From Longivirga aurantiaca (lineage in GTDB: Bacteria > Actinomycetota > Actinomycetes > S36-B12 > CAIYMF01): a stretch of DNA of 32,000 nucleotides. The position numbers and the translations under genes are program-made. Below are positions 3,583 through 24,779 of the stretch, piece after piece. Location: positions 270,001 to 302,000 of the forward strand of contig NZ_JBHSTI010000008.1 in assembly GCF_042660085.1 (NCBI RefSeq), in the 5' to 3' direction. The first letter of the stretch is position 1; each line of letters opens with the position of its first letter. The notes under the pieces are model-generated. The model worked only from the letters and a program-made list of their open reading frames with translations, was not told where the DNA came from and did no database searches.

Positions 3583-3608
3583 GCGTACTCCCTTGTATAT
3601 GGACACCG

Positions 3609-5887: not shown

Positions 5888-5918
5888 GAGCCCGTCGTCC
5901 CCGTTGACGACGGGCCTC
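5888..5918. terminator. hairpin after the YhfT-like gene
   Basis: CCCGTCGTC (5891-5899), loop CCCGTT, GACGACGGG (5906-5914). The stem can extend by GAG/CCTC. A second small stem, GGCCT/AGGCC, lies at 5867-5886. Confidence 0.45.
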
Positions 5919-5934
5919 GCCGCGCCTACCATGG

Positions 5935-5967
5935 TGCAACGGGCGCAGACCCTATGCAACATACGCA
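5935..5967. promoter_or_regulatory. two direct TGC-N7-GCA boxes upstream of the GMC operon
   Basis: TGCAACGGGCGCA (5935-5947) and TGCAACATACGCA (5955-5967), with starts 20 bp apart. TATGCAACATACGCAA (5953-5968) matches 15647-15662 at 14 of 16 positions. Confidence 0.5.
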
Positions 5968-6002
5968 ATGCGCTCCAGCGCACACTCGTCAGGGAGCCTG
6001 TT

Positions 6003-7628: not shown

Positions 7629-8073
7629 GCGTGGATGTGTCCGTGCAGGGTTCGGTCCCGCTCACCGCGGAGCAGCGGGCCCGGTTGTCCGCGCTGGCCG
7701 ACGTCCTGATCCGCGGCGGTGCCGGTCTGCCCTCGGCCAGCGAGGCGGAGGTGCACTCGGTGTGGATCGACCGGGTGTTCGTGGCGCGCCCGGACATGGA
7801 GGTCGTGGTGCGCGGGGTGCTGGACGTGGCTGGGGATGCCGAGTCGGTCGTGGCCGGTCTGCGGGCCTCGGACGCGGAGCGGTTCTCGGCGTTCGCGTTC
7901 GCTGTCGCGGGGGCGTGGCTGATCAATCCGCGGGTGCGTCGTGAGCTGGGCTACCCGGGCCCGGTGCCGATGCGTCAGCCCGCCCTGCCCGACGAGGCCG
8001 ACGCCTATCTCGAGGACGGCATCCTCGACGTCGTCATCGCCCGAGGCCCCATCTACCGCCCCACCCCGGACGC
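7560..8073 (+). repeat. 514-bp direct repeat, copy A (partner 21431-21944)
   Basis: Base-by-base comparison found only two mismatches (7657 C/G, 7903 T/G), both synonymous. The repeat covers the last 22 codons of the GMC gene plus essentially the whole small-subunit gene. Confidence 0.9.
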
Positions 8074-8080
8074 ACAGTGA
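7622..8080 (+). CDS. small subunit of the flavoprotein dehydrogenase (gluconate 2-dehydrogenase subunit-3-like), copy 1
   Basis: ORF track, 152 aa. The GTG overlaps the GMC stop (7626-7628). LTAEQRARLSALADVLIRGGAGLPSASEAEV fits the pattern of the small-subunit family. It has no twin-arginine signal. A GTGA overlap joins it to the next gene at 8077-8080. Confidence 0.6.
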   Translation: MVSVDVSVQGSVPLTAEQRARLSALADVLIRGGAGLPSASEAEVHSVWIDRVFVARPDMEVVVRGVLDVAGDAESVVAGLRASDAERFSAFAFAVAGAWLINPRVRRELGYPGPVPMRQPALPDEADAYLEDGILDVVIARGPIYRPTPDAQ

Positions 8081-9171
8081 GCTCGGTCCCTGTCTCCGAT
8101 GTCCTCGCCTGGAGCAGCGCAGTTCTCGTCGAGGCTGGGCTCGCTCCCGTCGACGCGGGATGGGTGGCGGAGAGCCTCGTCTTCGCCGACCTGCGAGGGG
8201 TGAGCACACACGGTGTGATGCGGCTCCCGACCTACGTCGCTCGCATCCGAGCGGGCGGTATCGCCGCGCGGCATTCGATCACCGTCGAGGCTGACCTGGG
8301 AGCGCTGGTGATCCTTGACGGCGGCGCCGGTGCCGGCGCGAGCCTCGGAGTGCACTCCGCCGATCTCGCCGTGGAACGCGCCCGCACCTACGGCATCGGC
8401 GCCGTGATCACCAAGAACGCCAACCACTTCGGCGCCTGCGCGTTCTACACCAACAGGATCGCCGACGCCGGGCTGCTGGGCCTGGTCGCGTGCAACACGG
8501 AATCCGTGATGTGTGCGCCGTTCGGTGGCGCACCCGTGCTGGGCACCAACCCGCTGGCGCTCGCCGTGCCGATGCCCGCGTCGGAACGCCCCCAGCTCGA
8601 CATGGCCACCACCACGACGAGCCAGGGCCGGCTGCTGATCGCGGAGCAGGCCGGGGAGCCGATACCGGTGGGGTGGGCCGTCGACGCGGGGGGACAACCC
8701 ACGACCTCCGCGAGCGAAGGCCTCCGCGGTGCGCTCCTGCCGATGGGCGGGCCGAAGGGGTTCGGGCTCGCCTTCGCCGTGGACGCACTCCTCGCGCTGG
8801 CCGGCGCCAACGTGAGCACGAGGGTGTCCGCTCTGGGCGGCGATCCCTCCGAGGCCCAGAGGCTGGGGCACATCGCCATCGCCATCCGCGCGGACGGTGC
8901 GCAGCCGCTCGACGACTACCGCAGCGCCATGAGCGGGCTTGTCGGTTCCATCCACGCCAGCTCGGTCGGGCTGGACGTGCCAGCGGCGGTCGCGCCGGGG
9001 GAGCCCGAGGTGGAGCGCGAGCGCGCGGCCGACGGGCGCATCTCGCTCTCGCCGCATGTCGTCGCGGAGCTCGCCGAGCTCGCCGAGAGCGCGGGGATCG
9101 CCCTGCCGTCCGCGCTCGCCGCACTCACGCGACCGATCACCACTCGCGAATCTGGAGAGACGAGCACATGA
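8077..9171 (+). CDS. Ldh_2-family (malate/L-lactate dehydrogenase type 2) oxidoreductase
   Basis: ORF track, 364 aa. Motifs: ADLRGVSTHGVMRLPTYV, FGGAPVLGTNPLALAVP, DMATTTTSQGR, GGPKGFGLAF. The family includes ureidoglycolate dehydrogenase and 2,3-diketo-L-gulonate reductase. Confidence 0.85.
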   Translation: MSSVPVSDVLAWSSAVLVEAGLAPVDAGWVAESLVFADLRGVSTHGVMRLPTYVARIRAGGIAARHSITVEADLGALVILDGGAGAGASLGVHSADLAVERARTYGIGAVITKNANHFGACAFYTNRIADAGLLGLVACNTESVMCAPFGGAPVLGTNPLALAVPMPASERPQLDMATTTTSQGRLLIAEQAGEPIPVGWAVDAGGQPTTSASEGLRGALLPMGGPKGFGLAFAVDALLALAGANVSTRVSALGGDPSEAQRLGHIAIAIRADGAQPLDDYRSAMSGLVGSIHASSVGLDVPAAVAPGEPEVERERAADGRISLSPHVVAELAELAESAGIALPSALAALTRPITTRESGETST

Positions 9172-10256
9172 CCACGATCGCCTCCGTGCGCTCCGACTAC
9201 TACCTGGTCCCGCTGGACGTCGTTCTGAGCGACAGCACCCACGGCAGCATCCCGCACTTCGAGCTGGTGACCGTCCGGGTCACAGACAGCGACGGAGCGG
9301 AGGGGATCGGCTACACGTACGCCGTGAACTCGGGCGGGGCTGCCTTCAAGACCCTGATCGACCACTACCTGACACCCGTGGTCCTCGGCGCCGACGTCGA
9401 CGCGAGCGAGCGCGTCTGGCAGGACATGTGGTGGGCCGTCCACTACTCCGGACGTGGCGGTCACGCGACCTCGGCGATCTCGGCCGTGGACATCGCGATC
9501 TGGGACCTGCGCGCCAAACGCGCAGGCCAGCCGCTGTGGCGCTACTTCGGCGGCTTCGACCCGAAGGTGCCGGTGTACGCCGGGGGCATCGACCTGGACT
9601 TCTCGGTCGAGGAGCTGCTCGAGCAGGCCGACCGTTTCCAGGAGCTCGGGTTCCGAGCCATCAAGATGAAGGTCGGCCGAGCGAGCCTGCGGGAGGACGT
9701 CGAGAGGGTCCGCCGGATGCGCGAGCACCTCGGCGACGACTTCCCGCTCATGGTCGACGCCAACATGAAGTGGAGCGTCGACCAGGCCGTGCGTGCTGCC
9801 CAGGCCCTCGCCGAGTTCAACCTGCTGTGGATCGAGGAGCCGACCATCCCCGATGACGTCGCGGGCCATGTGCGGGTCGTGCGCGAGGGGCGCACCCCGG
9901 TCGCCACCGGCGAGAACATGCACACGCTGTACGAGTTCAGCAACCTCATCGTCGCGGGCGGGCTGACGTACCCGGAACCGGACGTCACCAACTGCGGCGG
10001 CATGACCGTGTTCCGCAAGATCGCGGCGGTGGCGGAGGCGCACAATCTCCCCGTGACGTCCCATGGTGTGCACGATCTGACGGTCCACCTGCTCGCGGCT
10101 GCTCCCAACCGGACCTTCATGGAGGCCCATGGCTTCTCGCTGGACCGCTACATCGCCCACCCCATGGCCGTCGTGGACGGGTTCACCATGGCGCCCGAGA
10201 GGCCCGGGCACGGCATCGAGCTCGACTGGTCGGCTCTGGAGCAGCACCGGTCGTGA
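9168..10256 (+). CDS. enolase-superfamily enzyme, mandelate-racemase subgroup (probable acid-sugar dehydratase)
   Basis: Frame of ORF 8490..10256. ATG 9168 forms an ATGA overlap with the upstream stop, and GGAGAGA lies upstream. Product is 362 aa. Motifs: KxK (IKMKVG), metal ligands MVDANM / WIEEP / ATGEN, His in VTSHG. Confidence 0.85.
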   Translation: MTTIASVRSDYYLVPLDVVLSDSTHGSIPHFELVTVRVTDSDGAEGIGYTYAVNSGGAAFKTLIDHYLTPVVLGADVDASERVWQDMWWAVHYSGRGGHATSAISAVDIAIWDLRAKRAGQPLWRYFGGFDPKVPVYAGGIDLDFSVEELLEQADRFQELGFRAIKMKVGRASLREDVERVRRMREHLGDDFPLMVDANMKWSVDQAVRAAQALAEFNLLWIEEPTIPDDVAGHVRVVREGRTPVATGENMHTLYEFSNLIVAGGLTYPEPDVTNCGGMTVFRKIAAVAEAHNLPVTSHGVHDLTVHLLAAAPNRTFMEAHGFSLDRYIAHPMAVVDGFTMAPERPGHGIELDWSALEQHRS

Positions 10257-10942
10257 CTACGGGAGCGATAAGACGCCGCCTCGTCCTCTGGGATGTCGAC
10301 GGCACGCTGGTGAGCAACGACGAGAGCGACGAGCGGCTGTTCGTGGCCACCACCGAGTCCGTCCTCGGCCCGTTGCCGCACATCGTGCACCCGTACCGCC
10401 ATGGCAAGACCGACCGGCAGCAGGTGATCGAGTACCTCAAGGCCAACGGAGGCTCCTCCGCGCAGGCTGACGAGGGCTCGAGGCTTCTTGTCGAGCACTC
10501 ACGGGTGCACTTCGCCGAGCCCGGAGAGCGTGTGACGCTGCCGGGGGTGCGAGCAACGCTCGAGGCGCTCGCTGCCGCAGGGCACGTCAACGCCATGCTG
10601 ACCGGGAACAGCGAGGTGCGCGCACGGCTCAAGCTGCGATCCGCCGGCTTGTCATCGGAGCATTTCGACTGGGCGTCCAGCTTCTTCGGCGGAGCCGTCG
10701 CCTCCCGCCTAGACCTGACGCGTGCTGCCTCGGAGTACGCCGCTGGCCGCGGCCTGGTGCCGGTGGTGATCGGGGACACCGCCGCGGACTCGCACGCGGC
10801 CGAGATCGCGGGGATCGAGTTCATCGGCGTGGCCACGGGCGTGTACGACGCCTCGGAGCTACGAGCGACCCCGAACGTCCTGGTCGTCGACGACCTGGAC
10901 GTGGGTGGCCGTTCCGTCCTCGACCTTCTCGCGACCCGTTAG
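10253..10942 (+). CDS. HAD-superfamily hydrolase (phosphatase-like)
   Basis: ORF track, 229 aa. GTGA overlap with the enolase stop. DxDGT motif (LWDVDGTLV) and a late GDT..D motif (VIGDTAADSHAA). Confidence 0.7.
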   Translation: MTTGAIRRRLVLWDVDGTLVSNDESDERLFVATTESVLGPLPHIVHPYRHGKTDRQQVIEYLKANGGSSAQADEGSRLLVEHSRVHFAEPGERVTLPGVRATLEALAAAGHVNAMLTGNSEVRARLKLRSAGLSSEHFDWASSFFGGAVASRLDLTRAASEYAAGRGLVPVVIGDTAADSHAAEIAGIEFIGVATGVYDASELRATPNVLVVDDLDVGGRSVLDLLATR

Positions 10943-11337
10943 GAGCCGACGGCTGCGGCCTTCTCGGCCAGCCTGGACCCGAACTTGTCCAGGTCGACGA
11001 TGAACCGCTCATGAGTACCGGCGACGACGTCGTCGATACCGTCGTTCGCTGTGATCTCGAAGACGACACGGCGCCGATCGACCTCGGTGACGGTTGCCGT
11101 GCAGGTCACGGTCTGCCCCAGCAGTGTCGCGGCGGTGTGCGCGATGTCGACGCGCGTGCCGACGCTCGACTGGGTCGGCGGTAGGTGAGGTGCCAGCGCC
11201 TCGATCGCCGTGAGCTCCAGCAGCAGGACGAGATCAGGCGTGGCGAAGATGCGGTAGTCGCCTCGCTCCGTGCAGTCCTCGAGCTCGATCCGCTTGACCA
11301 GCGTGCCGCTGGTGCCCACGGTGATGTCGTCGATCAT
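10939..11337 (-). CDS. hotdog-fold thioesterase-like protein (FlK-like)
   Basis: ORF track, 132 aa, with GAGAGGA RBS upstream. The size and the pattern FATPDLVLLLE...SVGTRVDIAHTAATLLGQTV...RRVVFEI fit small hotdog thioesterases. Confidence 0.55.
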   Translation of the reverse strand: MIDDITVGTSGTLVKRIELEDCTERGDYRIFATPDLVLLLELTAIEALAPHLPPTQSSVGTRVDIAHTAATLLGQTVTCTATVTEVDRRRVVFEITANDGIDDVVAGTHERFIVDLDKFGSRLAEKAAAVGS

Positions 11338-11355
11338 GGTGTCCTCTCGGGTTGT

Positions 11356-12267
11356 CTAGAGCACTGCCAAAGGGTTCACCGGAGAGCCGGTTCCCCCGGG
11401 GATGCGCAGGGGGGCCATGGCGAACAGGAACTCCCAGCGGTCGAGGTCCGCGCAGGCGACCGCGAGGTCCTCGAGGGACATGTTGTCGATGAGCGGCATG
11501 CCCATCGCATTGAGCGCCAGCGCATGGATGGGCGAGACGATGCCCGCGACCGGGCTCGGTCGGGCGTCGCTGTCGCCGTCCGAGCCGAGCAGGGCGGACC
11601 CGTCGCGGCTGAGCACCTGCATGCAGTCAGGCCCGAGACCCGCACTGAAGTTCGAGGGGTCCCAGGCGCCGAGGGCGTCCTTCCTCGCACGAGCGCCCGT
11701 GCGCACGAGGACGGCGTCCCCGGGACGCAGAGACACGCCCTGCTCAGCGAGCACCGATTCGAGCTCGTCGGCTCCGATGGCCGTGCCGGGATCCAGCCAC
11801 GGCAGTCCGCGGCTGCGCGGGACGTCCACCAGGACACCGCGGGTCACTACCCCGTGTGCCATGTGGGCGACGGTTCCGACGTCGCCACCACGATCGCCGA
11901 CGTGCGTCTCGGAGTCGTAGCCGTTGTAGAGACGTCCGCGGAACACGCAGTGGCACAGGGCGTCGAGGTGCGTCACGGACTTCCCGTGGAAGTCCATGCC
12001 CACGTAGTCGGTGTTGACGCTCGGCTCGGCGTCCCCCGTGGCCGCGTATCCGGTCATGCGGTGCTCGACGGGTCGAGCGTTGTCGGGGCCGGGATCGCGA
12101 TCCAGGTCATGGCTCAGGCTGATCGAGCGGCCCACCCGGACGAGCGAAGAGGCCTCGACGACCGTGCGGTCCGAGATGTGATGGAGAGTCCCGCGCTGAT
12201 CGTCGTGACCCCAGCGACCCCAGGTGCTGACCCGATCGAAGAGCGCGTCGAAGTCCGCGGACTCCAT
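11356..12267 (-). CDS. cyclase-family protein (kynurenine-formamidase-like metal hydrolase fold)
   Basis: Frame of ORF 11356..12651. ATG 12267 lies 2 nt after the upstream stop. Product is 303 aa. FHGKSVTHLDALCH resembles the HxGTHxDxPxH motif of the putative-cyclase family. Confidence 0.65.
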   Translation of the reverse strand: MESADFDALFDRVSTWGRWGHDDQRGTLHHISDRTVVEASSLVRVGRSISLSHDLDRDPGPDNARPVEHRMTGYAATGDAEPSVNTDYVGMDFHGKSVTHLDALCHCVFRGRLYNGYDSETHVGDRGGDVGTVAHMAHGVVTRGVLVDVPRSRGLPWLDPGTAIGADELESVLAEQGVSLRPGDAVLVRTGARARKDALGAWDPSNFSAGLGPDCMQVLSRDGSALLGSDGDSDARPSPVAGIVSPIHALALNAMGMPLIDNMSLEDLAVACADLDRWEFLFAMAPLRIPGGTGSPVNPLAVL

Positions 12268-12269
12268 GG

Positions 12270-12698
12270 TCACGGGTTCCTGTCGATCTCGAACATCACG
12301 AGCTCCGCCTCGCCCTCGAGCACCACGAGTCCCTCGCCCTTGGAGACCGTGGTGGTGACGAATACCCGGCCGCGCTCCTCGTTCTTGTCGGTGACGACGC
12401 ACTCCACGGTGATGCGGTCCCCGATGAGCACAGGTCCTCGGAAGCGCATGGTCTGCGACACATACGCGCTGCCGACGCCCAGCAGCTGGGCCAACGTCGC
12501 ACCGATATAGCCGCCGCACTGCATGCCGTAGGCGACCCGCCCTCCGAAGCGTGTCGAGGCAGCGAACACCTCGTCCAGGTGCAGCGGACCTCGGTCGCCG
12601 ATGATGCCGGCGTACATGACGACGTCGGCCTCCGTGACCGTGCGCGTCCACTCCTCACGGTCGCCGACCTGGACCTGGTCGATGGTCAGGTACTTCAC
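12270..12698 (-). CDS. MaoC-like (R)-specific enoyl-CoA hydratase/dehydratase
   Basis: Frame of ORF 12270..12755. GTG 12698 forms a GTGA overlap with the ligase stop. Motifs: ADVVMYAGIIGDRGPLHLDEVFA, a hydratase-2-like motif, and a single hotdog domain. Confidence 0.8.
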   Translation of the reverse strand: MKYLTIDQVQVGDREEWTRTVTEADVVMYAGIIGDRGPLHLDEVFAASTRFGGRVAYGMQCGGYIGATLAQLLGVGSAYVSQTMRFRGPVLIGDRITVECVVTDKNEERGRVFVTTTVSKGEGLVVLEGEAELVMFEIDRNP

Positions 12699-14338
12699 GT
12701 CTGCGCTCCTGTGATGAGTTGCCGCAGGGACACCCCGGCGGCATGACGGTCCCACGTGTCCGGCGTGACGCCCTCGTTGCGCAGGGCGACCTTCTGCGGC
12801 TTCCCGTTAGGGGTCCTGGGCAGCTGATCGAGCACGCGGACGTAGCGAGGCACCATGAAGTGCGGCAGTCGTTGCGCGAGGTCGGTGATGAGAGCGCCCG
12901 GATCGAGCGGGGCGCCGGGCGCGGGGATCAGGCACAGCAGCACGTCGTCGTCGCCCGCGAACTCCGAAGGAACGCCGACGGCGGCGCACTCGGCCACGCC
13001 CGGATGCTCGAGCGCGGCACGCTCGATCTCGTACGACGAGATGTTCTCCGCTCGGCGGCGGATGCGCTCCTTGACCCGGTCCACGAAGTACACGTAGCCA
13101 TCCTCGGCGATGTAGGCGAGGTCGCCCGTGTGGAACCACAGGTTTCGCCATGCGGCCAGAGTGGCCTCGGGCATGCGCAGGTAGCCCTGCATCATGGTGA
13201 AGGGCCGTCGAGGGCGCAGGACCATCTCGCCCGTGCTGCCCAGCGGGACCTCCTCGTCGGTGTCCGGGTCGACGATCCGCAGCTCGAAGTGCTCAGCACG
13301 CAGGCGCCCGCACGATCCGATCCGCAGTGGTTCGTCGAACGGCTGCCAGATCGGGATCGTCACCTCGGTCATCCCCCACGTCTCGATCCCGCGGATGCCG
13401 AAGCGCTCCTGGAAATCCAGGGCGATGCCGGCGGGGAACGGGGAGGCCATGATGCGGGTGATGGGGTTCTCGGCATCGTCAGCTCGCACCGGCTGCTGGT
13501 GCAGCATCTCGACGAGGGGGCCGTGCAGGAGCGCGATGGTGCAGTCGTTCTCGCGCGCCCGCGACAGGAACTCGTCGACCGCGAAGCGCGTGTCGAGGAC
13601 GACGCGCCCGGCGGCCATCATCGAGCCCATGATCCCGATGAACTTCCCTGCGACGTGGAACAGCGGGATGAAGCAGTAGAAGGCGTCGTCCGAGGTCATC
13701 CGCGCGCCTTCGACGCCGAGGCGCGAGAACAGCCGCACCTGACCGTGAGGCATCATCACGCCCTTGGCCGGTCCCGTCGTCCCGGACGTGTAGATGATGG
13801 ACGCGATGTCGTGGGGTCCGACGAGCCGCTCGGGCGCGGTGTCGGACGCGCCCAGGACGTCATGGAACGCCAGGGTCCTGGTGCCGGGGACCGTCACCGT
13901 CACCGGTCCGTCGCCGGCGGGGTAGACGACGACCGTGTCCAGATGGGTGAGCGAGTCGCTGATCTCGACGACCCGGGGGAGCAGCGCCTCCTCGACGAAC
14001 ATGACGCGCGCCTGGGAGTTCTGCAGCACATGCTCGAGGCTGTGGCCGCGGTAGCCGGTGTTGATCGCGACCTCGACCGCGCCTGCGAGGCTCGTGCCCA
14101 GCCAGGTGGCGATGGACTCCGTGGAGTTGTCGGCCATGATCACGACGCACTCGCCGTGCGCGACGCCCAGCGCGACGAGCCCGTTGCCGACGGCGCACGC
14201 GGCGCGGTAGGCCTCGGCGTAGGTCACCGGTCGGCCGCCGACCTGGCGGAAGAACTCGCGCTCTCCGTCCTCGCCGGCGCGGGCCCGGAGCAGATCCGGA
14301 AGAAGCGCGTCGAGCATGACGTCCACGGTGTGCGGCAC
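12695..14338 (-). CDS. acyl-CoA synthetase / AMP-dependent ligase (ANL superfamily, CaiC-like)
   Basis: ORF track, 547 aa. AMP-binding motif IIYTSGTTGPAKGV, plus GMTE, YFVDRVKERIRR and PRTPNGK. The start may instead be GTG 14326, which has GAAGGG 9 nt upstream. Confidence 0.85.
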   Translation of the reverse strand: MPHTVDVMLDALLPDLLRARAGEDGEREFFRQVGGRPVTYAEAYRAACAVGNGLVALGVAHGECVVIMADNSTESIATWLGTSLAGAVEVAINTGYRGHSLEHVLQNSQARVMFVEEALLPRVVEISDSLTHLDTVVVYPAGDGPVTVTVPGTRTLAFHDVLGASDTAPERLVGPHDIASIIYTSGTTGPAKGVMMPHGQVRLFSRLGVEGARMTSDDAFYCFIPLFHVAGKFIGIMGSMMAAGRVVLDTRFAVDEFLSRARENDCTIALLHGPLVEMLHQQPVRADDAENPITRIMASPFPAGIALDFQERFGIRGIETWGMTEVTIPIWQPFDEPLRIGSCGRLRAEHFELRIVDPDTDEEVPLGSTGEMVLRPRRPFTMMQGYLRMPEATLAAWRNLWFHTGDLAYIAEDGYVYFVDRVKERIRRRAENISSYEIERAALEHPGVAECAAVGVPSEFAGDDDVLLCLIPAPGAPLDPGALITDLAQRLPHFMVPRYVRVLDQLPRTPNGKPQKVALRNEGVTPDTWDRHAAGVSLRQLITGAQT

Positions 14339-14341
14339 CCT

Positions 14342-15322
14342 TCAGATGTTGACGGCGGACATGTCGCTGTAGCGGTCGCCGACGACGGCATCCGGCGGGA
14401 CGAGATCGCCCAGCCGAGCCAGGTGCTCGTCCGTGAGCTGCAGCGACGCCGCGGCGACGTTGGACTCGAGGTTACGGCGGTGCTTCGTCCCCGGGATGGG
14501 TACGACGTCGTCGCCCTGTGCGAGCACCCACGCCAGCGCCAGCTGCGCGAGCGTGCAGCCCAGATCGTCGGCGATCTCGCGGGAGGCCTCCACGAGGGCG
14601 AGGTTGCGCTGCAGCGCATCGCCCTGGAAGCGCGGCGACGTGCGCCGCCAGTCGTCGGGCGCCAGGTCGTCGGCGTGGCTGATCGCACCCGTGAGCAGCC
14701 CTCGGCCCAGCGGGCCGTAGGCGACGAACCCGACGCCCAGCTCACGGCACACCGGGAGGATCTCCTGCTCCACGTCGCGGCTCTGGAGGGAGTACTCGCT
14801 CTGGATCGCCGCAACCGGGTGCACGGCATGGGCCCTGCGCAAGGTGGCGCCCGAGACCTCCGACAGCCCGATGTAGCGCACCTTGCCCGCAGCCACCAGG
14901 TCGGCCATCGCCCCGACCGTCTCCTCGATGGGAGTGTCCCGGTCCAGCCGGTGCTGCCAGTAGATGTCGATGCGGTCGGTGCCGAGGCGCTGGAGGGACA
15001 GGTCGCAGGAACGTCGGACATAGTCCGGGCGTCCGTTGACGCCGAGGTTCGTCCCGTCCGAGGCGCGCACCATGCCGAACTTGGTGGAGTAGAGGACCCG
15101 GTCCCGCTGTCCGGCGAGCGCATGACCGATCAGGGCCTCGTTGGCGAACGGGCCGTAGACGTCGGCGGTGTCGAAGAGCGTGACGCCGAGCTCCACGGCT
15201 CGCAGCAGCGTGGCGCGCGACTCCGCGTCGTCGAAGTCGGTGCCGTACGTGCCGGACATGGTCATGCAGCCCAGACCGAGGGACGACACCTCGAGCTCGG
15301 CGCCGAGGCGACGGGTGCGCAC
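14342..15322 (-). CDS. aldo-keto reductase
   Basis: Frame of ORF 14342..15700. GTG 15322 lies 2 nt after the upstream stop. Product is 326 aa. Motifs: LGAELEVSSLGLGCM, FDTADVYG, KFG, and IGLSE, typical of AKR11/13-like enzymes. Confidence 0.85.
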   Translation of the reverse strand: MRTRRLGAELEVSSLGLGCMTMSGTYGTDFDDAESRATLLRAVELGVTLFDTADVYGPFANEALIGHALAGQRDRVLYSTKFGMVRASDGTNLGVNGRPDYVRRSCDLSLQRLGTDRIDIYWQHRLDRDTPIEETVGAMADLVAAGKVRYIGLSEVSGATLRRAHAVHPVAAIQSEYSLQSRDVEQEILPVCRELGVGFVAYGPLGRGLLTGAISHADDLAPDDWRRTSPRFQGDALQRNLALVEASREIADDLGCTLAQLALAWVLAQGDDVVPIPGTKHRRNLESNVAAASLQLTDEHLARLGDLVPPDAVVGDRYSDMSAVNI

Positions 15323-15324
15323 GG

Positions 15325-15633
15325 CTACTGCCCGACCGGGAAGACGGTCTCGACCCGGCGGACGGAGATGCTCAGGACGAAGGCCTTGGGCTCGTCGCCG
15401 ATCACCGCGGCCCGCCTCTCCGACGCCCGGTAGCGGGCCTCCTGCTCCTCGGCGGTGCCCTCGCCGACGAACTCGCGCACCCACAGGAAGGTGGAGGTCG
15501 CACGGTCGGCCCACGCACCGCGCACGGGCAGCCCGAACTCCTCGTGGAGGGGCACGATCTTGTCGTGGAAGAGCGTCAGCCAGGCGTCCATCGTGCCTGG
15601 GACGATCTCGTACGTTCGATGCTCGACGGTCAC
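15325..15633 (-). CDS. NIPSNAP-family small alpha/beta-barrel protein
   Basis: ORF track, 102 aa, GTG start with GGAGAGG RBS. The pattern YEIVPGTMDAWLTLFHDKIVPLHEEFGLPVRGAW...FLWVREF fits NIPSNAP domains. Confidence 0.6.
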   Translation of the reverse strand: MTVEHRTYEIVPGTMDAWLTLFHDKIVPLHEEFGLPVRGAWADRATSTFLWVREFVGEGTAEEQEARYRASERRAAVIGDEPKAFVLSISVRRVETVFPVGQ

Positions 15634-15648
15634 CGGTATCCTCTCCTA

Positions 15649-15681
15649 TGCGACATACGCACATTGATTGCATATGTCGCT
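15649..15681. promoter_or_regulatory. inverted pair of TGC-N7-GCA boxes in the divergent region between the NIPSNAP operon and kdgK
   Basis: TGCGACATACGCA (15649-15661) and TGCATATGTCGCT (15669-15681), with starts 20 bp apart. The arms GCGACATACGCA and TGCATATGTCGC are reverse complements with one mismatch and a 7-bp spacer. Confidence 0.55.
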
Positions 15682-15746
15682 GAGTGAGGCTAACGTCCAT
15701 CGGAAAGGCAGGTCAAGGTGACCAGCCCCGACGCGCGAAGGCCGAC

Positions 15747-16697
15747 GTGAGCGGGAGTGACCCAGATCTGGTTGCCGTCGGCGAGACGATGGCGACCTTC
15801 GTGCGCGCCGGCGCAGTCGATGCCTACCGGCTCGTGACGGCCGGGGCCGAGTCCAATGTCGCCGCCGGGATGGCCGTGCTGGGGTGCCGGACGCAGTGGC
15901 ACTCGCGGCTCGGGGCCGACGAGCTCGGCGCGTTCGTCGCCGACTCGCTCGCGGCGGCCGGGGTCGACGTCGTCGTCGAGCGCGACCCCGAGCGTCCTAC
16001 GGGTGCGGCGGTCAAGGAGATCGGCGACGCAGGGTCCCGGATGCGCTACTACCGCGCCGGCAGCGCGGCGAGCCGACTCGACCTGCTGGACACGCGTCCC
16101 GCTCAGGAGGCGCAGCGCCTGCACCTCACCGGGGTGACCCCGGCCCTGTCCCGCGAGAACAGCGGCGTGGTCGCGCGGCTGCTCGCCGACCGCCGCGGGG
16201 GCACCAGCTTCGACATCAACTACAGGCCGGTCCTCTGGGCCAGCGCCGAGCAGGCTGCCAGCGTCCTCATCCCGCTGGCACGATCCGCCGACGTCGTCCT
16301 CATCGGCGATGACGAGGCACGGGCGCTTCTCGGGTCCGACGACGTCGACGTGGTGGCGCGAGCGATCCTGGTGCGGCCCGACCAGGAGCTGGTGCTCAAG
16401 CGCGGGCCGTCCGAGGCCGTGCTCGCGACCGAGGACCGGCGCGTCTCCGAACCGGCTCACCGGGTCGAGGTCGTCGACGTCACCGGAGCGGGGGACGGGT
16501 TCGCGGCGGGCTACCTGACGGCTGCGGTCTGGGGCTGGCCCGCGCGTGCGAGACTCCGGCTCGGGCATTTCCTGGCCTCACGGGTCGTGGGAGTCCTGGG
16601 AGACACCGTGCCTGACATCGACCGAGAAGACCTGACCAGGCTCGCCGTTGACCTGGGGCAGACGTGGCCGAACCCGACGGAGGAGAGACGACGATGA
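15747..16697 (+). CDS. kdgK: PfkB-family sugar kinase, 2-dehydro-3-deoxygluconokinase-like
   Basis: Frame of ORF 15684..16697. GTG 15747 is preferred because it leaves room for the divergent promoter. Motifs: LVAVGETMA N-terminus and DVTGAGDGFAAGYL anion-hole/ATP motif. Confidence 0.8.
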   Translation: MSGSDPDLVAVGETMATFVRAGAVDAYRLVTAGAESNVAAGMAVLGCRTQWHSRLGADELGAFVADSLAAAGVDVVVERDPERPTGAAVKEIGDAGSRMRYYRAGSAASRLDLLDTRPAQEAQRLHLTGVTPALSRENSGVVARLLADRRGGTSFDINYRPVLWASAEQAASVLIPLARSADVVLIGDDEARALLGSDDVDVVARAILVRPDQELVLKRGPSEAVLATEDRRVSEPAHRVEVVDVTGAGDGFAAGYLTAAVWGWPARARLRLGHFLASRVVGVLGDTVPDIDREDLTRLAVDLGQTWPNPTEERRR

Positions 16698-17437
16698 GCC
16701 AGACCCTGGATCGAGCCCTGCAGATCCTTGACTACGTGGGGGAGAAGCCGCGGCGCATCGCGGAGATCGCGGAGTTCCTCAACGTCCATCACTCGACGGC
16801 GCTCCGCTTCCTGCACACGCTGCGAAACCACGGGTTCGTGCACGAGCTGCCCGACCACCGGTACCGCCTCGGCGCGGCGATGTTCCGACTGGGCTTCCAG
16901 GCGCTGGACGGGCTCGAGCTGAGGTCAGTGGCCCGACCGGCGATGGAACGCCTGAGCGCCGCGACGGGCGAGACCGTTCACCTCGGTGCGCTCGAGGACG
17001 GCGATGTCGTGTACATCGAGAAGGTCGAGTCGCAGCACCCGGTGCGCACCGTGTCCCGCATCGGTGCGATCGCCACCCTGCACTGCGCCGGAGTGTCCAA
17101 GGCCATCCTCGCGTTCCTTCCCGAGGCGGAGCGGGAGGCGTTGCTCGCCTCGCACGAGCTGGTGCGGCGGACCGACCACACCCTCACCAGCAGGGAGGCG
17201 TTGGAGGCCGATCTCGCGCTGAGCCGCGAGCGCGGTTACGTGCTGGACGACGAGGAGAACGAGCCCGGGATCCACTGCGTGTCCGCCCCCATCTTCTCGG
17301 GCGACGGGGAGGTCGCCGGCTCGATGAGCGTGTCGACGCCGATCAGCCGCATCGACCGGGACGCCCTGCTCGGCTTCGTCCCCGCGCTGCTCGACGCCAC
17401 ACGGTCCACGTCGGCGATGCTGGGCTGGAGCGGCTGA
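16694..17437 (+). CDS. IclR-family transcriptional regulator (KdgR-like)
   Basis: Frame of ORF 16664..17437. ATG 16694 forms an ATGA overlap with the kinase stop. LDRALQILDYVGEKPRRIAEIAEFLNVHHSTALRFLHTL is a winged HTH, followed by an IclR effector domain. Confidence 0.85.
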   Translation: MSQTLDRALQILDYVGEKPRRIAEIAEFLNVHHSTALRFLHTLRNHGFVHELPDHRYRLGAAMFRLGFQALDGLELRSVARPAMERLSAATGETVHLGALEDGDVVYIEKVESQHPVRTVSRIGAIATLHCAGVSKAILAFLPEAEREALLASHELVRRTDHTLTSREALEADLALSRERGYVLDDEENEPGIHCVSAPIFSGDGEVAGSMSVSTPISRIDRDALLGFVPALLDATRSTSAMLGWSG

Positions 17438-18051
17438 TGCAGCTGCGGACCGTCGCAATCCTGCGATCCTTCGGCCCGGAGCGGTCGCGCGAGCTCGCTC
17501 TGCGTTGCTGGGACATCGGCGTCGACCTGGTGGAGGTGCCCGTCCAGGACGACAGGGGCTGGGCCTCCCTGGCGGCCGTTGCCGCTGTGTCGGAGGGGCG
17601 ACCCTTCGGCGCCGGCACCGTGCTCACCACCCACGACTCGCATCGCGCCACCGATGCCGGAGCCTCGGTGGTCATCAGCCCGGGGATCGATGCTGCGGTC
17701 GTCGAGGCCGCCCGGGCCGCGGGGGCGATGCCGCTGCCCGGAGTGTTGACCCCGACGGACGTGACGCTCGCGCACTCCCTCGGCCTGTCCGTGTGCAAGC
17801 TGTTCCCGGCGTCGCAGGTGGGACCCGCCTGGCTCGGGGACATCCGCGGCCCGTTCCCCGCCATGCGGTTCGTCGCCGTCGGGGGCGTGGACCACGTCAC
17901 TGCCGCGGACTACCTGCGGGCCGGCGCTGCCGGGGTCGGCTTCGGCTCGAGCATCGAACGAGTCCTGCAGGCGTCCGACCCGGCCGGGATCATCGCCGGG
18001 CTGCATGCGCTGTGCTCGCCGCCGGGGGCAGCGCCGGATGTACTGATGTAA
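17437..18051 (+). CDS. eda: KDPG/KHG aldolase (paralog 2)
   Basis: ORF track, 204 aa. TGATG overlap with the regulator stop. Motifs: VEVPVQD (Glu), GAGTV, CKLFPA (Lys), AVGGV. Confidence 0.8.
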   Translation: MQLRTVAILRSFGPERSRELALRCWDIGVDLVEVPVQDDRGWASLAAVAAVSEGRPFGAGTVLTTHDSHRATDAGASVVISPGIDAAVVEAARAAGAMPLPGVLTPTDVTLAHSLGLSVCKLFPASQVGPAWLGDIRGPFPAMRFVAVGGVDHVTAADYLRAGAAGVGFGSSIERVLQASDPAGIIAGLHALCSPPGAAPDVLM

Positions 18052-18064: not shown

Positions 18065-18094
18065 TTGACTCCTCCCGACGCATCTGGGTAATCT
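18065..18094 (+). promoter_or_regulatory. candidate housekeeping-type promoter for the etf-GMC operon
   Basis: TTGACT (18065-18070), 18 nt, TAATCT (18089-18094). The TGC boxes begin 3 nt downstream of the -10. Confidence 0.35.
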
Positions 18095-18096: not shown

Positions 18097-18129
18097 TGCA
18101 CTATGCGCGGAGCATCTGCATATGCTGCA
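18097..18129. promoter_or_regulatory. paired TGC-N7-GCA boxes upstream of etfB
   Basis: TGCACTATGCGCG (18097-18109, one mismatch) and TGCATATGCTGCA (18117-18129), with starts 20 bp apart. Confidence 0.45.
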
Positions 18130-18140: not shown

Positions 18141-18905
18141 GTGAAGGTCCTGGTCTGTGTCACACAGACGCTCGAGGTGGCGACCTACCTCGAGTTCACC
18201 CCTGACGGGCGCGAGCTGGACCCTGCCTTCGTCACCGCTCTGGTGAACGAGGCGGATCTGTGCGCCGTCGAGGAGGCGCTAGGGCTCGTCGCGGCTGCCG
18301 GCGGCGGCGAGGTCGTCCTCGTCAGCGTCGGCGAGGACAGTGCCGAGGACGCGCTCCGCTCCGCGCTGGCGCTCGGTCCGGAGCGTGCTGTCCGGGTGTG
18401 GGGCGAGGGGGTCGTGCTCTCCGACGCCGGCTCGATCGCCGCCGCGCTGATGACCGCCGTCGAGGCCGAGTCCCCGGACCTCGTGCTCACCGGAGTCCAG
18501 TCGTCGGACACCGGCGCCCAGTCGGTCGGGCCGGCCCTCGCCGCGCGGTGGGGTGTCGCCTGCGTGCCCGTGGGCCGACGGCTGTCGGCGTCCGGATCGA
18601 CCCTCAGCCTGGAGCGCGAGTTCGAGGCCGGCCTCGTCGAGCGGGTCGAGGTGGATCTGCCCGCCCTGGTGACGGTTCAGGTCGGTGCCAACACGCCTCG
18701 CTACGGGACCTTCAAGGACAAGATGCGTGCGAAGAAGGCTGACATCGGCGTGCTCGAGCCCTCGGTGATGCCGCCGGCGCGGACGACGCTCACCCGCCTT
18801 GAGGCAGCTCCGCACGGCTCCGGCCGCTCGATCGAGCTCATCGAGGGCGGCCCGTCGGTCGTAGCCGCCCGCATCGTCGAACTGGTTCGGGAGGCCCAGT
18901 CGTGA
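18141..18905 (+). CDS. etfB: electron transfer flavoprotein, beta subunit
   Basis: ORF track, 254 aa, GGAGGG RBS. MKVLVCV... N-terminus, NEADLCAVEEAL, and DLVLTGVQSSD, typical of EtfB/FixA. Confidence 0.85.
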   Translation: MKVLVCVTQTLEVATYLEFTPDGRELDPAFVTALVNEADLCAVEEALGLVAAAGGGEVVLVSVGEDSAEDALRSALALGPERAVRVWGEGVVLSDAGSIAAALMTAVEAESPDLVLTGVQSSDTGAQSVGPALAARWGVACVPVGRRLSASGSTLSLEREFEAGLVERVEVDLPALVTVQVGANTPRYGTFKDKMRAKKADIGVLEPSVMPPARTTLTRLEAAPHGSGRSIELIEGGPSVVAARIVELVREAQS

Positions 18906-19846
18906 CCCGTTCCCTGGTCCTTGCCGAGGTGGTGGACGGCGTCCTCGCCCCCGTGACAGCGCAGGCGGTCGCGGCCGCCGTGGGCCTGGGCGGCGACATC
19001 GTCCTCGGCCTCGTCGCGCAGGACCCTGAGGCGCTCGTCCTTGCCGCTTCTCTGGCGGGTGTCACCGAGATCGTGACGGTCGCGGTCCCAGGGACGGACC
19101 GTGATCACGAGCAGGCGCTCCAGGCGGCCGTGGCCCTCGTGGCCGACGTCCGGCCCGATCAGGTGATCGCCGGATTCACCATCCGTTCCTCGTCCTACGC
19201 GGCCGCACTCGGTCACGTCCTGGACGTGGGCGTGATCACCGACGCGATCGCCCTGCGCCGTGACGACTCACAGAACCTGGTCGCGACACGGTCGGTCTAC
19301 GACGGCCGCGTCCAGGCCGAGGTGGTGCTCGACGGCTCCCGGCCGGGCGTCGTCCTGGTACGCCCGTCGTCCTGGGAGCCCGTCGAGCCCGGTGGCGCAC
19401 CGGTCGTACGGGCGCTGAGCGTCGAGATCGCCCCATCGCGTGTTCGCTCCGTCGAGCTCGTTCGGCCGTCGGGCGACGTCGACCTCGCGCGCGCCGACGT
19501 GATCCTCTCGATCGGTCGCGGAGTGGGGAGCCAGGAGAACGTGGCTGTCTTCGCGGACGTTGCGGCCAGGCTGGGTGTGGCGCTGGGTGCCTCGCGGCCG
19601 ATCGTCGATGCCGGATGGCTGCCGGCGGCGCACCAGGTCGGGCAGACCGGTTCGACCGTGAAGCCCCGCCTGTACCTGGCCTTCGGCATCTCCGGCGCGC
19701 TGCACCACCTGGCGGGTATGCAGAACAGCCGGACCATCCTGGTCGTGAACTCCGACAGGAACGCCCCGCTCTTCGGCCACGCCGATGTCGGTGCCGTCGA
19801 GGATATCCATGACGTCGTCGAGCAGCTCAACCTGCTGCTCGCCTAG
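18902..19846 (+). CDS. etfA: electron transfer flavoprotein, alpha subunit
   Basis: ORF track, 314 aa. GTGA overlap with etfB. C-terminal FAD domain: GASRPIVDAGWLP...QVGQTGSTVKPRLYLAFGISGALHHLAGM. Confidence 0.85.
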   Translation: MTRSLVLAEVVDGVLAPVTAQAVAAAVGLGGDIVLGLVAQDPEALVLAASLAGVTEIVTVAVPGTDRDHEQALQAAVALVADVRPDQVIAGFTIRSSSYAAALGHVLDVGVITDAIALRRDDSQNLVATRSVYDGRVQAEVVLDGSRPGVVLVRPSSWEPVEPGGAPVVRALSVEIAPSRVRSVELVRPSGDVDLARADVILSIGRGVGSQENVAVFADVAARLGVALGASRPIVDAGWLPAAHQVGQTGSTVKPRLYLAFGISGALHHLAGMQNSRTILVVNSDRNAPLFGHADVGAVEDIHDVVEQLNLLLA

Positions 19847-19873
19847 CCAGCGCACCAGGGTCGGGAGGATCTC

Positions 19874-21499
19874 GTGAGCACGCACGATGTGCCAGACGTA
19901 CTCATCATCGGCGCGGGAGCGTCGGGCGGTGTCGCGGCCAAGCATCTGGCCGAGGAAGGCCTCAGCGTCGTCATCCTCGAACAGGGGAACTGGGTCGACC
20001 AGAGCGACATGCCCGGGCTCCGTCCGGAGTACGAGCTCCTCGGCAGCGGTCCCTGGCATCCGAACCCCAACGTTCGTAACCGCCCCGAGGACTACCCGGT
20101 CAATCTCGACGACAGCGCGGCGGTCATCGGGATGTTCAACGGCGTCGGCGGCAGCACGGTCCTGTACGCCAGCTGCTGGTGCCGCGCCAAGCCGTCGGAC
20201 TTCCGCGTGCGCACGCTCGACGGCGTGGCCGACGACTGGCCGTTGTCGTACGAGGAGCTCGCCCCCTTCTACGCGCAGGTCGAGCTGGAGCTCGGGATCT
20301 CGGGTCAGCCAGGGAACCCGGCCTACCCGCCGGGCTACGCGCCGCCGCTCCCCTCGCTGCCCATCAACATGGCGGGACGCGTCATGGCGCAGGGCATGAA
20401 CAAGCTGGGCTGGCACTGGTGGCCCGGCTACAACTCGATCGCCTCCCGTGACCATCTGCATCAGAAGCAGTGCCAGCGCCTCGGCGTGTGCATGTACGGA
20501 TGCCCTGAGGGGGCCAAGGGCTCGAGCGACGTAGCCCTCATCCCCGATGCGCTGGCGCACGGTGCGCGGCTCGAGACCGGCGCCCGCGTCGCCCAGATCA
20601 CCCTGGACGAGAAGGGCCGTGCCAGCGGAGCCGTCTACTTCAAGGACGGCAAGGAGCACTTCCAGCCGGCCAAGGTCGTGCTCGTGGGCGCCAACGGTGT
20701 CGGGACGCCACGACTTCTGCTGATGAGCGAGTCCAACCGGTTCCCGGACGGGCTCGCGAACAGCTCGGGCCTCGTCGGCAAGCGGTTCATGACACATCCG
20801 TTCGGCACATCCGTCGGTCTCTACGAGGACGATCTCGAGGACTGGGTCGGCCCAACCGGCGAGGCGATCGAGTCGATGCAGTTCTACGAGACCGATGCCT
20901 CGCGCGGATTCGTGCGCGGCAGCAAGTGGCACATCATCCCGTCCGCGGGGCGCCCCCTCGGCATGATCAACCGCTTCACGATGGGGGAGGCGGGTGTCGC
21001 GGACGAGCCGTTCTGGGGGGAGCCCTTCACCGACCGGATGAGGTCGTCCGTCGGGCACCTCATCGAGTGGATGATCATGCCCGACGACCTGCCGGAGGAG
21101 ACGAACTTCATCTCGCTCGACCGGTCGATGTCCGACTCCGACGGTCTTCCCGCCGCCAAGGTCACCTACGTGACATCGGAGAACACGCGTCGGCTCGTCG
21201 ACTGGAACCTCCAGCGGAGCCTCGAGGCGCACGAGGCCGCCGGGGCGACGAAGGCGTGGATCACCAACCGCAACAACCCCTCGTGGCACAACATGGGCAC
21301 CGCCAAGATGGGCGACGACCGTGAGACCTCGGTCGTGGACCGTTGGGGTCGGACCCATGACGTCCCGAACCTCTACGTCATCGACGGGAGCCAGTTCCCC
21401 ACGGCGACGGGAGTCAATCCGACCGCGACGATCTGTGCGCTGGCCAAGCGGACGGCGACGTTCATCGCGAACAACCGTGACCAGGTGGTGGCGTGGTGA
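19874..21499 (+). CDS. GMC-family FAD-dependent dehydrogenase, large subunit (copy 2)
   Basis: ORF track, 541 aa, GTG start after GGGAGGA. By eye it is roughly two thirds to 70% identical in protein to copy 1 over most of its length. The last 22 codons are identical at the nucleotide level. Confidence 0.85.
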   Translation: MSTHDVPDVLIIGAGASGGVAAKHLAEEGLSVVILEQGNWVDQSDMPGLRPEYELLGSGPWHPNPNVRNRPEDYPVNLDDSAAVIGMFNGVGGSTVLYASCWCRAKPSDFRVRTLDGVADDWPLSYEELAPFYAQVELELGISGQPGNPAYPPGYAPPLPSLPINMAGRVMAQGMNKLGWHWWPGYNSIASRDHLHQKQCQRLGVCMYGCPEGAKGSSDVALIPDALAHGARLETGARVAQITLDEKGRASGAVYFKDGKEHFQPAKVVLVGANGVGTPRLLLMSESNRFPDGLANSSGLVGKRFMTHPFGTSVGLYEDDLEDWVGPTGEAIESMQFYETDASRGFVRGSKWHIIPSAGRPLGMINRFTMGEAGVADEPFWGEPFTDRMRSSVGHLIEWMIMPDDLPEETNFISLDRSMSDSDGLPAAKVTYVTSENTRRLVDWNLQRSLEAHEAAGATKAWITNRNNPSWHNMGTAKMGDDRETSVVDRWGRTHDVPNLYVIDGSQFPTATGVNPTATICALAKRTATFIANNRDQVVAW

Positions 21500-21944
21500 G
21501 CGTGGATGTGTCCGTGCAGGGTTCGGTGCCGCTCACCGCGGAGCAGCGGGCCCGGTTGTCCGCGCTGGCCGACGTCCTGATCCGCGGCGGTGCCGGTCTG
21601 CCCTCGGCCAGCGAGGCGGAGGTGCACTCGGTGTGGATCGACCGGGTGTTCGTGGCGCGCCCGGACATGGAGGTCGTGGTGCGCGGGGTGCTGGACGTGG
21701 CTGGGGATGCCGAGTCGGTCGTGGCCGGTCTGCGGGCCTCGGACGCGGAGCGGTTCTCGGCGTTCGCGTTCGCGGTCGCGGGGGCGTGGCTGATCAATCC
21801 GCGGGTGCGTCGTGAGCTGGGCTACCCGGGCCCGGTGCCGATGCGTCAGCCCGCCCTGCCCGACGAGGCCGACGCCTATCTCGAGGACGGCATCCTCGAC
21901 GTCGTCATCGCCCGAGGCCCCATCTACCGCCCCACCCCGGACGC
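21431..21944 (+). repeat. 514-bp direct repeat, copy B (partner 7560-8073)
   Basis: See copy A. Identity stops at 21944, one base before the TGA stop of small-subunit copy 2. Confidence 0.9.
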
Positions 21945-21948
21945 CTGA
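21493..21948 (+). CDS. small subunit of the flavoprotein dehydrogenase, copy 2
   Basis: ORF track, 151 aa. The protein is identical to copy 1 except that it lacks the terminal Gln. Confidence 0.6.
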   Translation: MVSVDVSVQGSVPLTAEQRARLSALADVLIRGGAGLPSASEAEVHSVWIDRVFVARPDMEVVVRGVLDVAGDAESVVAGLRASDAERFSAFAFAVAGAWLINPRVRRELGYPGPVPMRQPALPDEADAYLEDGILDVVIARGPIYRPTPDA

Positions 21949-22908: not shown

Positions 22909-22920
22909 TTATCATAACGT
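22907..22920. promoter_or_regulatory. second copy of the ACTTATCATAACGT promoter/operator core
   Basis: 14 of 14 identical to 3609-3622. It fills most of the 21-bp gap between the divergent start codons at 22908 and 22930. It carries the same overlapping -10-like hexamers (TATGAT minus, TAACGT plus). Confidence 0.5.
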
Positions 22921-22929
22921 AGTGACAAC

Positions 22930-23901
22930 ATGATGACGAGACCATCGGAGCAGGACGTGGTGCAACGGCTCTACTTCGTGGGCGTCTCCACGGCCGCCTC
23001 CGGCATCATGACCATCTTCCCCGCCTGGGCCGAGGCGCTCGGCCTCCGCGCCGAGATGCACGGCGTCGATCTCCCCGTGCAGGCCCGCCCGGACGACGTG
23101 CGCGCGGTGATCGACACCCTGGCAGTCGACCCGCAGGCAGTCGGCGCGCTCGTGACGACGCACAAGGCCGCGGTCTGGGACGCCGCCTCGGACCGCTTCT
23201 CCGAACTCGACCCCTGGGCGCAGGTGTGTCGCGAGATCTCGTGCATCGCGGTGCGCGACCGGGGTCTGATCGGCTGGGCGAAGGACCCGATCACCTCGCG
23301 CCAGGCGTACACGCACCTGCTCGGCGAGGACCCCTGGGGCGGCGGTGAGCGCGATCTGGTCTGCCTCGGCGCGGGTGGTGCCGGGCTGGCTCTGGCCGCG
23401 GCAGTCCTGGACGGCGGGCACCAGCCGCGCCGGGTGGTGCTCGCCGACCGGGACCCCGGGCGACTGACGGTCTCCCGGGAGGTGCTCGACCAGCTCGACG
23501 TTCGGGCAGAGCTCGAGCTCGTCGTCACGAGCAGCCCGGAGCAGGCCGGGGACCTGGTGTCGGCGTCCGCCGAGGGCTCCCTGGTCGTGAACGCCACGGG
23601 CATGGGCAAGGACCTGCCCGGCTCGCCGGTCGGGCCGGACGCGGTCTTCCCCCGGGGCGCGGTGGCGTGGGACATGAACTACCGAGGCGACCTGGCGTTC
23701 CTGGACATCGCGAGGGCGCAGCAGCTCGAGCGGGGTCTCGTAGTCGCCGACGGGTGGCGCTACTTCCTCCACGGCTGGACCGAGGTCATCGCCGAGCTGT
23801 TCGGCGTCGCGATGTCCCCCGACGTGTTCGCCGAGCTCGCCTCAATCGCCGGTCAGGTGTCGGGTCGGGAGGTGGGCAGTGCCGGCGTCAGCCGTGGCTG
23901 A
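22930..23901 (+). CDS. shikimate/quinate-dehydrogenase-family protein (divergent member)
   Basis: ORF track, 323 aa. VTTHKAAV resembles the NVTxPxK motif, CLGAGGAGLALAAAVL resembles the NAD(P) loop, and VNATGMG is also present. The N-terminal substrate motif is atypical. Confidence 0.6.
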   Translation: MMTRPSEQDVVQRLYFVGVSTAASGIMTIFPAWAEALGLRAEMHGVDLPVQARPDDVRAVIDTLAVDPQAVGALVTTHKAAVWDAASDRFSELDPWAQVCREISCIAVRDRGLIGWAKDPITSRQAYTHLLGEDPWGGGERDLVCLGAGGAGLALAAAVLDGGHQPRRVVLADRDPGRLTVSREVLDQLDVRAELELVVTSSPEQAGDLVSASAEGSLVVNATGMGKDLPGSPVGPDAVFPRGAVAWDMNYRGDLAFLDIARAQQLERGLVVADGWRYFLHGWTEVIAELFGVAMSPDVFAELASIAGQVSGREVGSAGVSRG

Positions 23902-24679: not shown

Positions 24680-24700
24680 GGGGTAGAACGTAACATCCGG

Positions 24701-24709
24701 TCATGACGT
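24701..24709. promoter_or_regulatory. TCATGACGT half-site in the gntR / yhfU-like divergent region
   Basis: Its reverse complement ACGTCATGA is identical to 3619-3627, inside the palindrome at 3613-3628. Confidence 0.3.
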
Positions 24710-24779
24710 CCTGTCGTCTCCCCGGTGGCACTCGCCGACCTGATCCCACCACCGCACGTACACGAGGAAAGAAGGCCTG

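Follow-up and report, generated by a model that had tools for sequence, protein, structure and literature searches.

The stretch of DNA analysed here (32,000 nucleotides, G000:C8:270001-302000; referred to as the window) belongs to a genome of 3.67 Mb with 72% G+C. Gene content was assigned by Pfam. At the left end of the window, a leftward gene for an unknown protein of 152 amino acids starts at about position 197 and ends outside the window. To its right, the plus strand encodes an Abhydrolase_3 esterase (381-1343) and a Peripla_BP_4 solute-binding lipoprotein (1650-2849; probable start ATG 1650, lipoprotein signal MYLVPAAAAMLLTAAC). The minus-strand ORF at 2962-3606 encodes a clear KDPG aldolase (KDPG/KHG aldolase match 5e-43), here termed eda2, and no Pfam match was obtained for the plus-strand ORF overlapping it (2860-3627). 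The genes for an SDR (3632-4402) and a YhfT protein (4466-5866) follow.

The central part of the window is occupied by four operons. The first (6003-10942, plus strand) encodes the GMC dehydrogenase GMC1, its small subunit, an Ldh_2 protein, an enolase-superfamily protein (MR_MLE) and a HAD protein. The second (10939-15633, minus strand) encodes NIPSNAP, aldo-keto reductase (AKR), acyl-CoA synthetase, MaoC, cyclase and FlK thioesterase proteins. Divergent from it, kdgK, iclR and eda are located at 15748-18051 on the plus strand. The likely start of kdgK is the GTG at 15748, a choice based on a Pfam match that begins at residue 28 and on the lack of conservation of an earlier GTG in relatives. 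The gene product of iclR (16694-17437, plus strand; Pfam HTH_IclR and IclR_C) is a KdgR-like regulator of the IclR family, which with its likely start ATG at 16694 has 247 amino acids, the same length as its orthologues. Together with the minus-strand aldolase gene, the eda of this operon makes two eda paralogues in the window, one under each of the two motifs described below. The fourth operon (18141-21948, plus strand) contains etfB, etfA, the gene for a second GMC dehydrogenase (GMC2) and that for its small subunit. Beyond 21948, php (PTE), an unknown gene, the gene for a GntR/UTRA regulator of the HutC type (23888-24679, minus strand) and yhfU/Y/W/X-type genes with PTS Enzyme I are found in that order.

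Paired TGCA boxes in five intergenic regions

A preliminary description of the window had listed boxes in five intergenic regions (A to E) with their starts 20 bp apart in each, and every box was found where it had been placed. An alignment of 29 composite sites from six genomes gave the consensus T.TGCA-N5-TGCA-N7-TGCA-N5-TGCA, in which the distance of 20 bp between the starts of the two boxes was invariant. The consensus of the single box is T.TGCA-N5-TGCA.A with nearly invariant outer TGCA tetrads; it covers 13 bp (TGCA-N5-TGCA), or 17 bp with the T and A flanks. The promoter elements mentioned in the following were read by eye in all regions except C, where they were obtained from a promoter scan.

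Region A, placed between the leftward 152-aa gene (start at about 197) and the esterase gene (381), contains boxes at 257 (TGCACATCACGCA), 277 (TGCAACCTATGCA) and 286 (TGCACAGTGTGCA). The predicted operator comprises 257-269 and 277-289, 20 bp apart, and is overlapped by the third box (286-298). A -10-like hexamer TACTAT (252-257) shares its last base with the first base of box 1, and the pair is also present, 20 bp apart, in four related loci (L086, L087, L088 and L090). In region B, upstream of the binding protein gene, the predicted operator consists of a full box at 1491-1503 (TGCACATAGTGCA) and a half-box at 1511-1523 (TGCACATGTAAGA). The sites of regions A and B are 98-153 nt away from the rightward start codons, which is beyond the usual -20 to -80. 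The region B pair is kept in five relatives, always with an ATGAAGA-like 3' end of the second box. This second box was never found as a full box (1511-1523 in the window; L086:1555, L087:1583, L089:3234, L090:1760) and ends with ATGAAG(A/T) in four relatives, the window version being ATGTAAGA; another signal, for instance part of a promoter or a very small ORF, may therefore overlap the operator here.

Regions C and E resemble each other in their architecture. Region C precedes the GMC1 operon (start ATG 6003) and contains a promoter-like TTGACG-17-TACCAT (5904-5932, plus strand), which is followed after 2 nt by the boxes at 5935-5947 (TGCAACGGGCGCA) and 5955-5967 (TGCAACATACGCA). In region E, a promoter-like TTGACT-18-TAATCT (18065-18094, plus strand) is likewise followed after 2 nt by boxes at 18097-18109 (TGCACTATGCGCG) and 18117-18129 (TGCATATGCTGCA); the ribosome-binding site GGAGGG lies 3 nt past the boxes and etfB starts at 18141. 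In all relatives, box 1 of both regions is directly preceded by a -35 element (TTGAC) with a -10-like hexamer, and in region E TTGAC and both boxes are kept in six relatives with diverged flanks.

Region D separates the leftward NIPSNAP-CoA operon (start 15633) from kdgK-iclR-eda and is the promoter region of the regulator gene itself. Its boxes at 15649-15661 (TGCGACATACGCA) and 15669-15681 (TGCATATGTCGCT) form a predicted operator in the shape of an inverted pair. The single mismatch reported for this pair is confirmed by GCGACATACGCA and GCGACATATGCA, which differ at one position, and the reported identity of 14 out of 16 positions between 5953-5968 and 15647-15662 holds as well. Box 2 overlaps a -35-like TTGCAT (15668-15673) located 17 nt before a TAACGT (15691-15696) that is conserved in relatives. 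The pair is kept in L002, L004, L006 and L007.

An arrangement of this kind could also act in RNA, with the boxes forming 5'-leader hairpins that control termination or translation instead of serving as DNA operators. The boxes of regions C and E are probably part of the transcribed leader, and folding is good for the inverted pair of region D (z = -3.8 and -4.2) and moderately good for region B (z = -2.8). Regions A, C and E, however, fold no better than shuffled sequences. Conservation affects the TGCA sequence and the 20-bp phase but not base pairing; in Nocardioides zhouii the region D pair is no inverted repeat. Moreover, relative to the genes, boxes are found in either orientation, and none of the Rfam families was matched in the window. 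With only region D and partly region B folding beyond shuffles and with a blank Rfam result, control by an RNA leader was rejected as extremely improbable, and the box pairs are treated as DNA operators below.

Specificity and conservation of the box pairs

The loose pattern TGC-N7-GCA was found 21 times in the window, compared to about 16 copies predicted from its genome density of 0.49 per kb. Being only mildly enriched, it is weak evidence when taken alone, and at this level the boxes might pass for chance similarity among AT-richer intergenic regions. The paired and extended forms are specific for the window. The 3.67-Mb genome contains two perfect TGC-N7-GCA pairs at a distance of 20 bp, both located in the window, and TGCA-N5-TGCA-N7-TGCA-N5-TGCA with up to two mismatches has three genome matches, all of them inside the window. 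When central spacers of 3 to 12 were compared (up to three mismatches), four of the nine genome matches with spacer 7 were located in the window; spacers 4, 5 and 12 gave one, two and one match there, the remaining spacers none. When matrices were trained on four regions and applied to the fifth, the top rank among the untrained positions of the genome (3.66 Mb) went in all five cases to the best box of the region left out. Matrix scores of the boxes ranged from 12 to 23 bits, and no position outside the window exceeded 15.5 bits. In shuffled versions of the window, 0.09 strong matches and 0.00 pairs were obtained, compared to eight and four, respectively, in the actual sequence. The comparison of phased pairs with genome and shuffles, which had been proposed in the preliminary description, is thereby decided in favour of the pairs. 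Since the boxes are in addition conserved in at least ten other loci, the rank, shuffle, spacer and conservation controls together refute chance similarity, the probability of which we regard as negligible.

Five other genomes (G005, G006, G041, G042 and G043) contain the island in syntenic form; the last is that of Nocardioides zhouii, the closest named relative of the locus. Each of the regions A to E has two boxes exactly 20 bp apart in all five of these relatives, while the surroundings diverge. The conservation in orthologous loci, proposed earlier as a check, thus applies to all five pairs. Across 63 scanned genomes of the family, paired sites numbered three or more only where the island is present, with the exception of one genome containing a GC-rich repeat of a different kind. 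For the genus, three to five paired sites were counted in each of the three genomes with the IclR orthologue, and none or one in the 24 genomes lacking it. AT-rich matches to the pattern in another genus (G060, G061, G063 and G071) were discarded as unrelated; no island genes are located nearby.

The exceptional genome (G047), which belongs to the same family as that of the window, harbors at least six copies of the GC-rich element TGCA..(G)GTGCACC....GGTGC.......TGCA (C1:54973, C1:78936, C2:156421, C4:128230, C6:258 and C26:8079). The element is unrelated to the island and may represent a dispersed repeat family.

Candidate regulators of the box pairs

The IclR-family protein is the sole regulator encoded within the box-bearing stretch, and a check of genes in the 15 kb to its left, covering five frames, revealed no other. 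Its nearest solved structures are TM0065 of T. maritima (1mkm, 4e-37) and KdgR of E. coli (1ysp, 8e-30), both of them distant matches with low identity to the window protein. Several of the approximately 430 orthologues were named 'KDG regulon repressor' by JGI annotators. The recognition helix, VH(H/P)STALR(F/L)L, is nearly invariant across orthologues with 62-67% identity.

The second regulator of the window is the GntR/UTRA protein (23888-24679), which might bind the boxes by itself or together with IclR. In all five close relatives, as well as in L101/L102, the synteny of the island includes the GntR gene and the genes of the yhf type; presence or absence alone cannot separate GntR from IclR there. 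As the whole island including the GntR gene is inherited together, the discrimination between the two regulators rests on a second motif and on rearranged loci.

The second motif came up at intergenic regions that do not follow the general pattern. All larger AT-enriched intergenic regions on the left and in the centre of the window had initially been described as carrying the boxes, which is an overstatement: 3607-3631, like 22909-22929, contains a different palindrome. This 16-bp palindrome, ATCATRACGTYATGAT, is present in perfect form at 3613-3628 in the divergent promoter of eda2 and SDR-YhfT and in a further copy at 22911-22926 in the divergent promoter of php and the unknown gene, with a weaker copy in the GntR promoter (24700-24715). 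It has two genome matches at up to two mismatches and is conserved in three relatives (L086:3631, L087:3717 and L088:4024). ATCATRACGTYATGAT is probably the operator by which the GntR/UTRA regulator would control the yhf-type genes. With a candidate operator of its own assigned to GntR, the TGCA boxes are left to IclR. The DNA upstream of the GntR gene, like the remaining promoters on the right-hand side, contains this palindrome and is devoid of TGCA boxes, on which grounds GntR was rejected as the binder of the boxes.

Rearranged contexts were sought because close relatives inherit the GntR and yhf genes along with the island. Orthologues of IclR with 62-67% identity are encoded at rearranged loci without GntR/yhf genes (L099/L100, L103, L105 and L106), where all regulators among the genes called up to 10 kb away on each side are of the IclR type. 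The neighbours are, in other orders, genes for AKR, CoA ligase, MaoC, FlK, ETF, ETF-QO, GMC, Ldh_2 and an enolase-type enzyme, as well as for a binding protein with an ABC transporter and an HbpS-like protein. The boxes and the 20-bp pairs are present in the intergenic regions of these loci; in L099, L103 and L105, sites immediately precede the gene of the IclR orthologue. In L099, L103, L105 and L106, four to six matches of at least 16 bits were counted compared to at most 0.2 in shuffles, and one to three pairs 20 bp apart compared to 0.00. Boxes are thus found in four loci that have no GntR gene within 10 kb on either side, and binding by GntR is considered highly improbable. The boxes co-travel with the IclR orthologues, and the earlier suggestion of a single regulator with IclR as the nearest candidate gains support from these loci. 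Judged from this comparative evidence, IclR is most likely the binder. In L104, which encodes a 63% identical orthologue, the boxes are weak and no strong match was detected. Paired boxes are absent near distant IclR homologues with up to 41% identity in Kribbella, Firmicutes and Chloroflexi (L008-L083), and these loci gave no extension of the regulog.

Seven of the Kribbella loci (L023, L024, L027, L029, L049, L053 and L065) have the sequence ATTACGTTTCCGCAACATGCGCA in common, located a few kb from distant IclR homologues (approximately 38% identity). It contains one box-like element and could be a related operator of another regulator.

A regulator encoded elsewhere in the genome, either another IclR paralogue or an ArgR-like protein, was also taken into account. 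About eight clear IclR-family genes and one argR are present in the genome. Actinobacterial ARG boxes resemble TGCAT-N4-ATGCA and are arranged as tandem pairs approximately 20 bp apart; they share with the window boxes the TGCA palindromes in tandem at a distance of about two helical turns. The inner spacing is different: the ARG-like site near the arg cluster is TGCA-N6-TGCA, not N5 as in the window boxes, and N6 boxes are absent from the window. In addition, the box matrix finds nothing near argR and the window regulon includes no arginine genes. On the basis of the N6 spacing and the blank matrix result at the arg cluster, ArgR was rejected. The nearest other IclR gene is located approximately 120 kb away. 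No strong box is found outside the island, which argues against a regulator with other targets, and the boxes travel specifically with the orthologues of the IclR protein encoded in the island. A binder encoded elsewhere is therefore unlikely, and the IclR protein of the island is retained as the preferred candidate.

Predicted mechanism, regulon and comparison with known IclR systems

Taken together, the box pairs are most likely tandem operators of the KdgR-like IclR regulator encoded in the island (16694-17437). Each 13-bp box would accommodate one IclR dimer, and with the centres 20 bp apart and hence on the same face of the helix, the two boxes together could be occupied by a tetramer (dimer of dimers). 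In regions A, C and E, a tetramer bound in this way would cover the edge of the -10 element, the start site and the leader as far as the ribosome-binding site; in region D, it would cover the -35-like TTGCAT together with the leader of the divergent operon. The location of the boxes on or 2 nt after a -10-like hexamer (A, C and E) or over a -35-like hexamer (D) points to blockage of RNA polymerase and thus to repression, which would affect all seven transcription units including that of the regulator. The region D pair upstream of kdgK-iclR-eda implies autoregulation. Release might be brought about by a pathway intermediate binding to the IclR_C domain, for which a 2-keto-3-deoxy sugar acid is the obvious guess. 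Tetramer binding, repression and effector are suggested by what is known of the family and by the position of the sites.

A survey of the family reported that IclR transcription factors of 94 orthologous groups bind to tandem palindromes whose centres are separated by 18-22 (mainly 19-21) nt; its authors explain this spacing by tetramers that place both dimers on the same side of the DNA (Suvorova and Gelfand 2021, PMC8222616). The structure of a TtgV-operator complex is cited there. The centres in the window are 20 bp apart and lie inside this range; none of the 29 composites (six genomes) deviates from this spacing, nor do the pairs of L099, L103, L105 and L106. The odd-length variants of the main (group 1) motif class are 17-nt palindromes with a W3 centre (PMC8222616), and the window box with its flanks is also 17 nt long and A/T-rich in the centre, which agrees with the palindromic box of approximately 15-19 bp with an A/T-rich centre typical of IclR-family tandem operators. 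Further common features are the proximity of the sites to promoters and start codons and the encoding of the regulator beside its targets, with one of the sites in the regulator's promoter (region D; L099, L103 and L105). The half-site is different. The published consensus sequences are GKTYCRYW3-4RYGRAMC for group 1 and TGRAACAN1-2TGTTYCA for group 2 (PMC8222616), in contrast to T.TGCA in the window, and no window box was found within three mismatches of either. Exact box strings were not found in the accessible part of the supplement of PMC8222616. The window pairs are most likely a further case of a known kind of regulation, that by IclR tandem operators of the tetramer type.

A comparison with KdgR and other repressors of KDG regulons gives a mixed picture. 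These (1ysp, 1mkm) are the closest solved relatives of the window IclR, its gene is located between kdgK and eda, and predicted sites are found upstream of that operon; predicted control of kdgK and eda, as expected for a KDG regulon, thus finds its counterpart in the region D pair, which is kept in relatives. The KdgR-type box (group 2, TGRAACA-N1-2-TGTTYCA), on the other hand, is absent from the window, and the predicted regulon comprises mostly GMC/ETF dehydrogenases and a CoA-activation operon, in contrast to the pectin and uronate genes of KdgR systems.

The predicted targets are the 152-aa gene and the esterase gene (region A), the binding protein gene (region B), the GMC1 operon (region C), the NIPSNAP-CoA operon and kdgK-iclR-eda (region D) and the etf-GMC2 operon (region E). 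That such seemingly unrelated operons form one pathway-level regulon had already been suggested. It is supported by the fact that the same families are associated with boxes in other genomes, namely AKR, CoA ligase, MaoC, FlK, ETF, GMC, Ldh_2, enolase-type enzyme and binding protein. No literature specific to this regulon or gene combination was found. We tentatively propose, at somewhat short of even confidence, that it represents an undescribed IclR regulog with a TGCA-type half-site outside both published motif classes, putatively controlling approximately 21 genes of one catabolic pathway across Actinobacteria. These genes encode two GMC dehydrogenases with their small subunits, ETF, the AKR/CoA-ligase/MaoC/cyclase/thioesterase operon, Ldh_2, an enolase-type enzyme, the esterase, the binding protein and KdgK/Eda.

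The regulatory principle is ordinary, and what makes the case interesting is mainly that a puzzling group of enzymes would come under a single regulon. The predicted co-regulation joins operons that fit no known pathway, with flavoprotein dehydrogenases feeding ETF, an operon for CoA activation and a KDG kinase/aldolase end module. Since the same families are box-associated in rearranged actinobacterial loci, the predicted regulon is a usable guide to the substrate. Furthermore, T.TGCA would add an IclR half-site unlike the two published classes at the same 20-bp tandem geometry, which is useful for rules of specificity prediction.

Two observations on related loci concern the composition of the regulon. 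The metagenome contigs L099/L100 (8686-18129) encode a pair of IclR paralogues that share 64% and 59% identity with the window IclR and have nearly identical recognition helices; the AKR-CoA ligase operons are duplicated and IS elements are present, which suggests that the regulon was duplicated and reshuffled there. The binding protein of the window (1650-2849) is encoded alone, with no adjoining ABC permease or ATPase gene, while in L103, L105 and L106 the gene of the orthologous binding protein, predicted to be box-controlled as well, is followed by ABC_tran and BPD_transp_2 genes.
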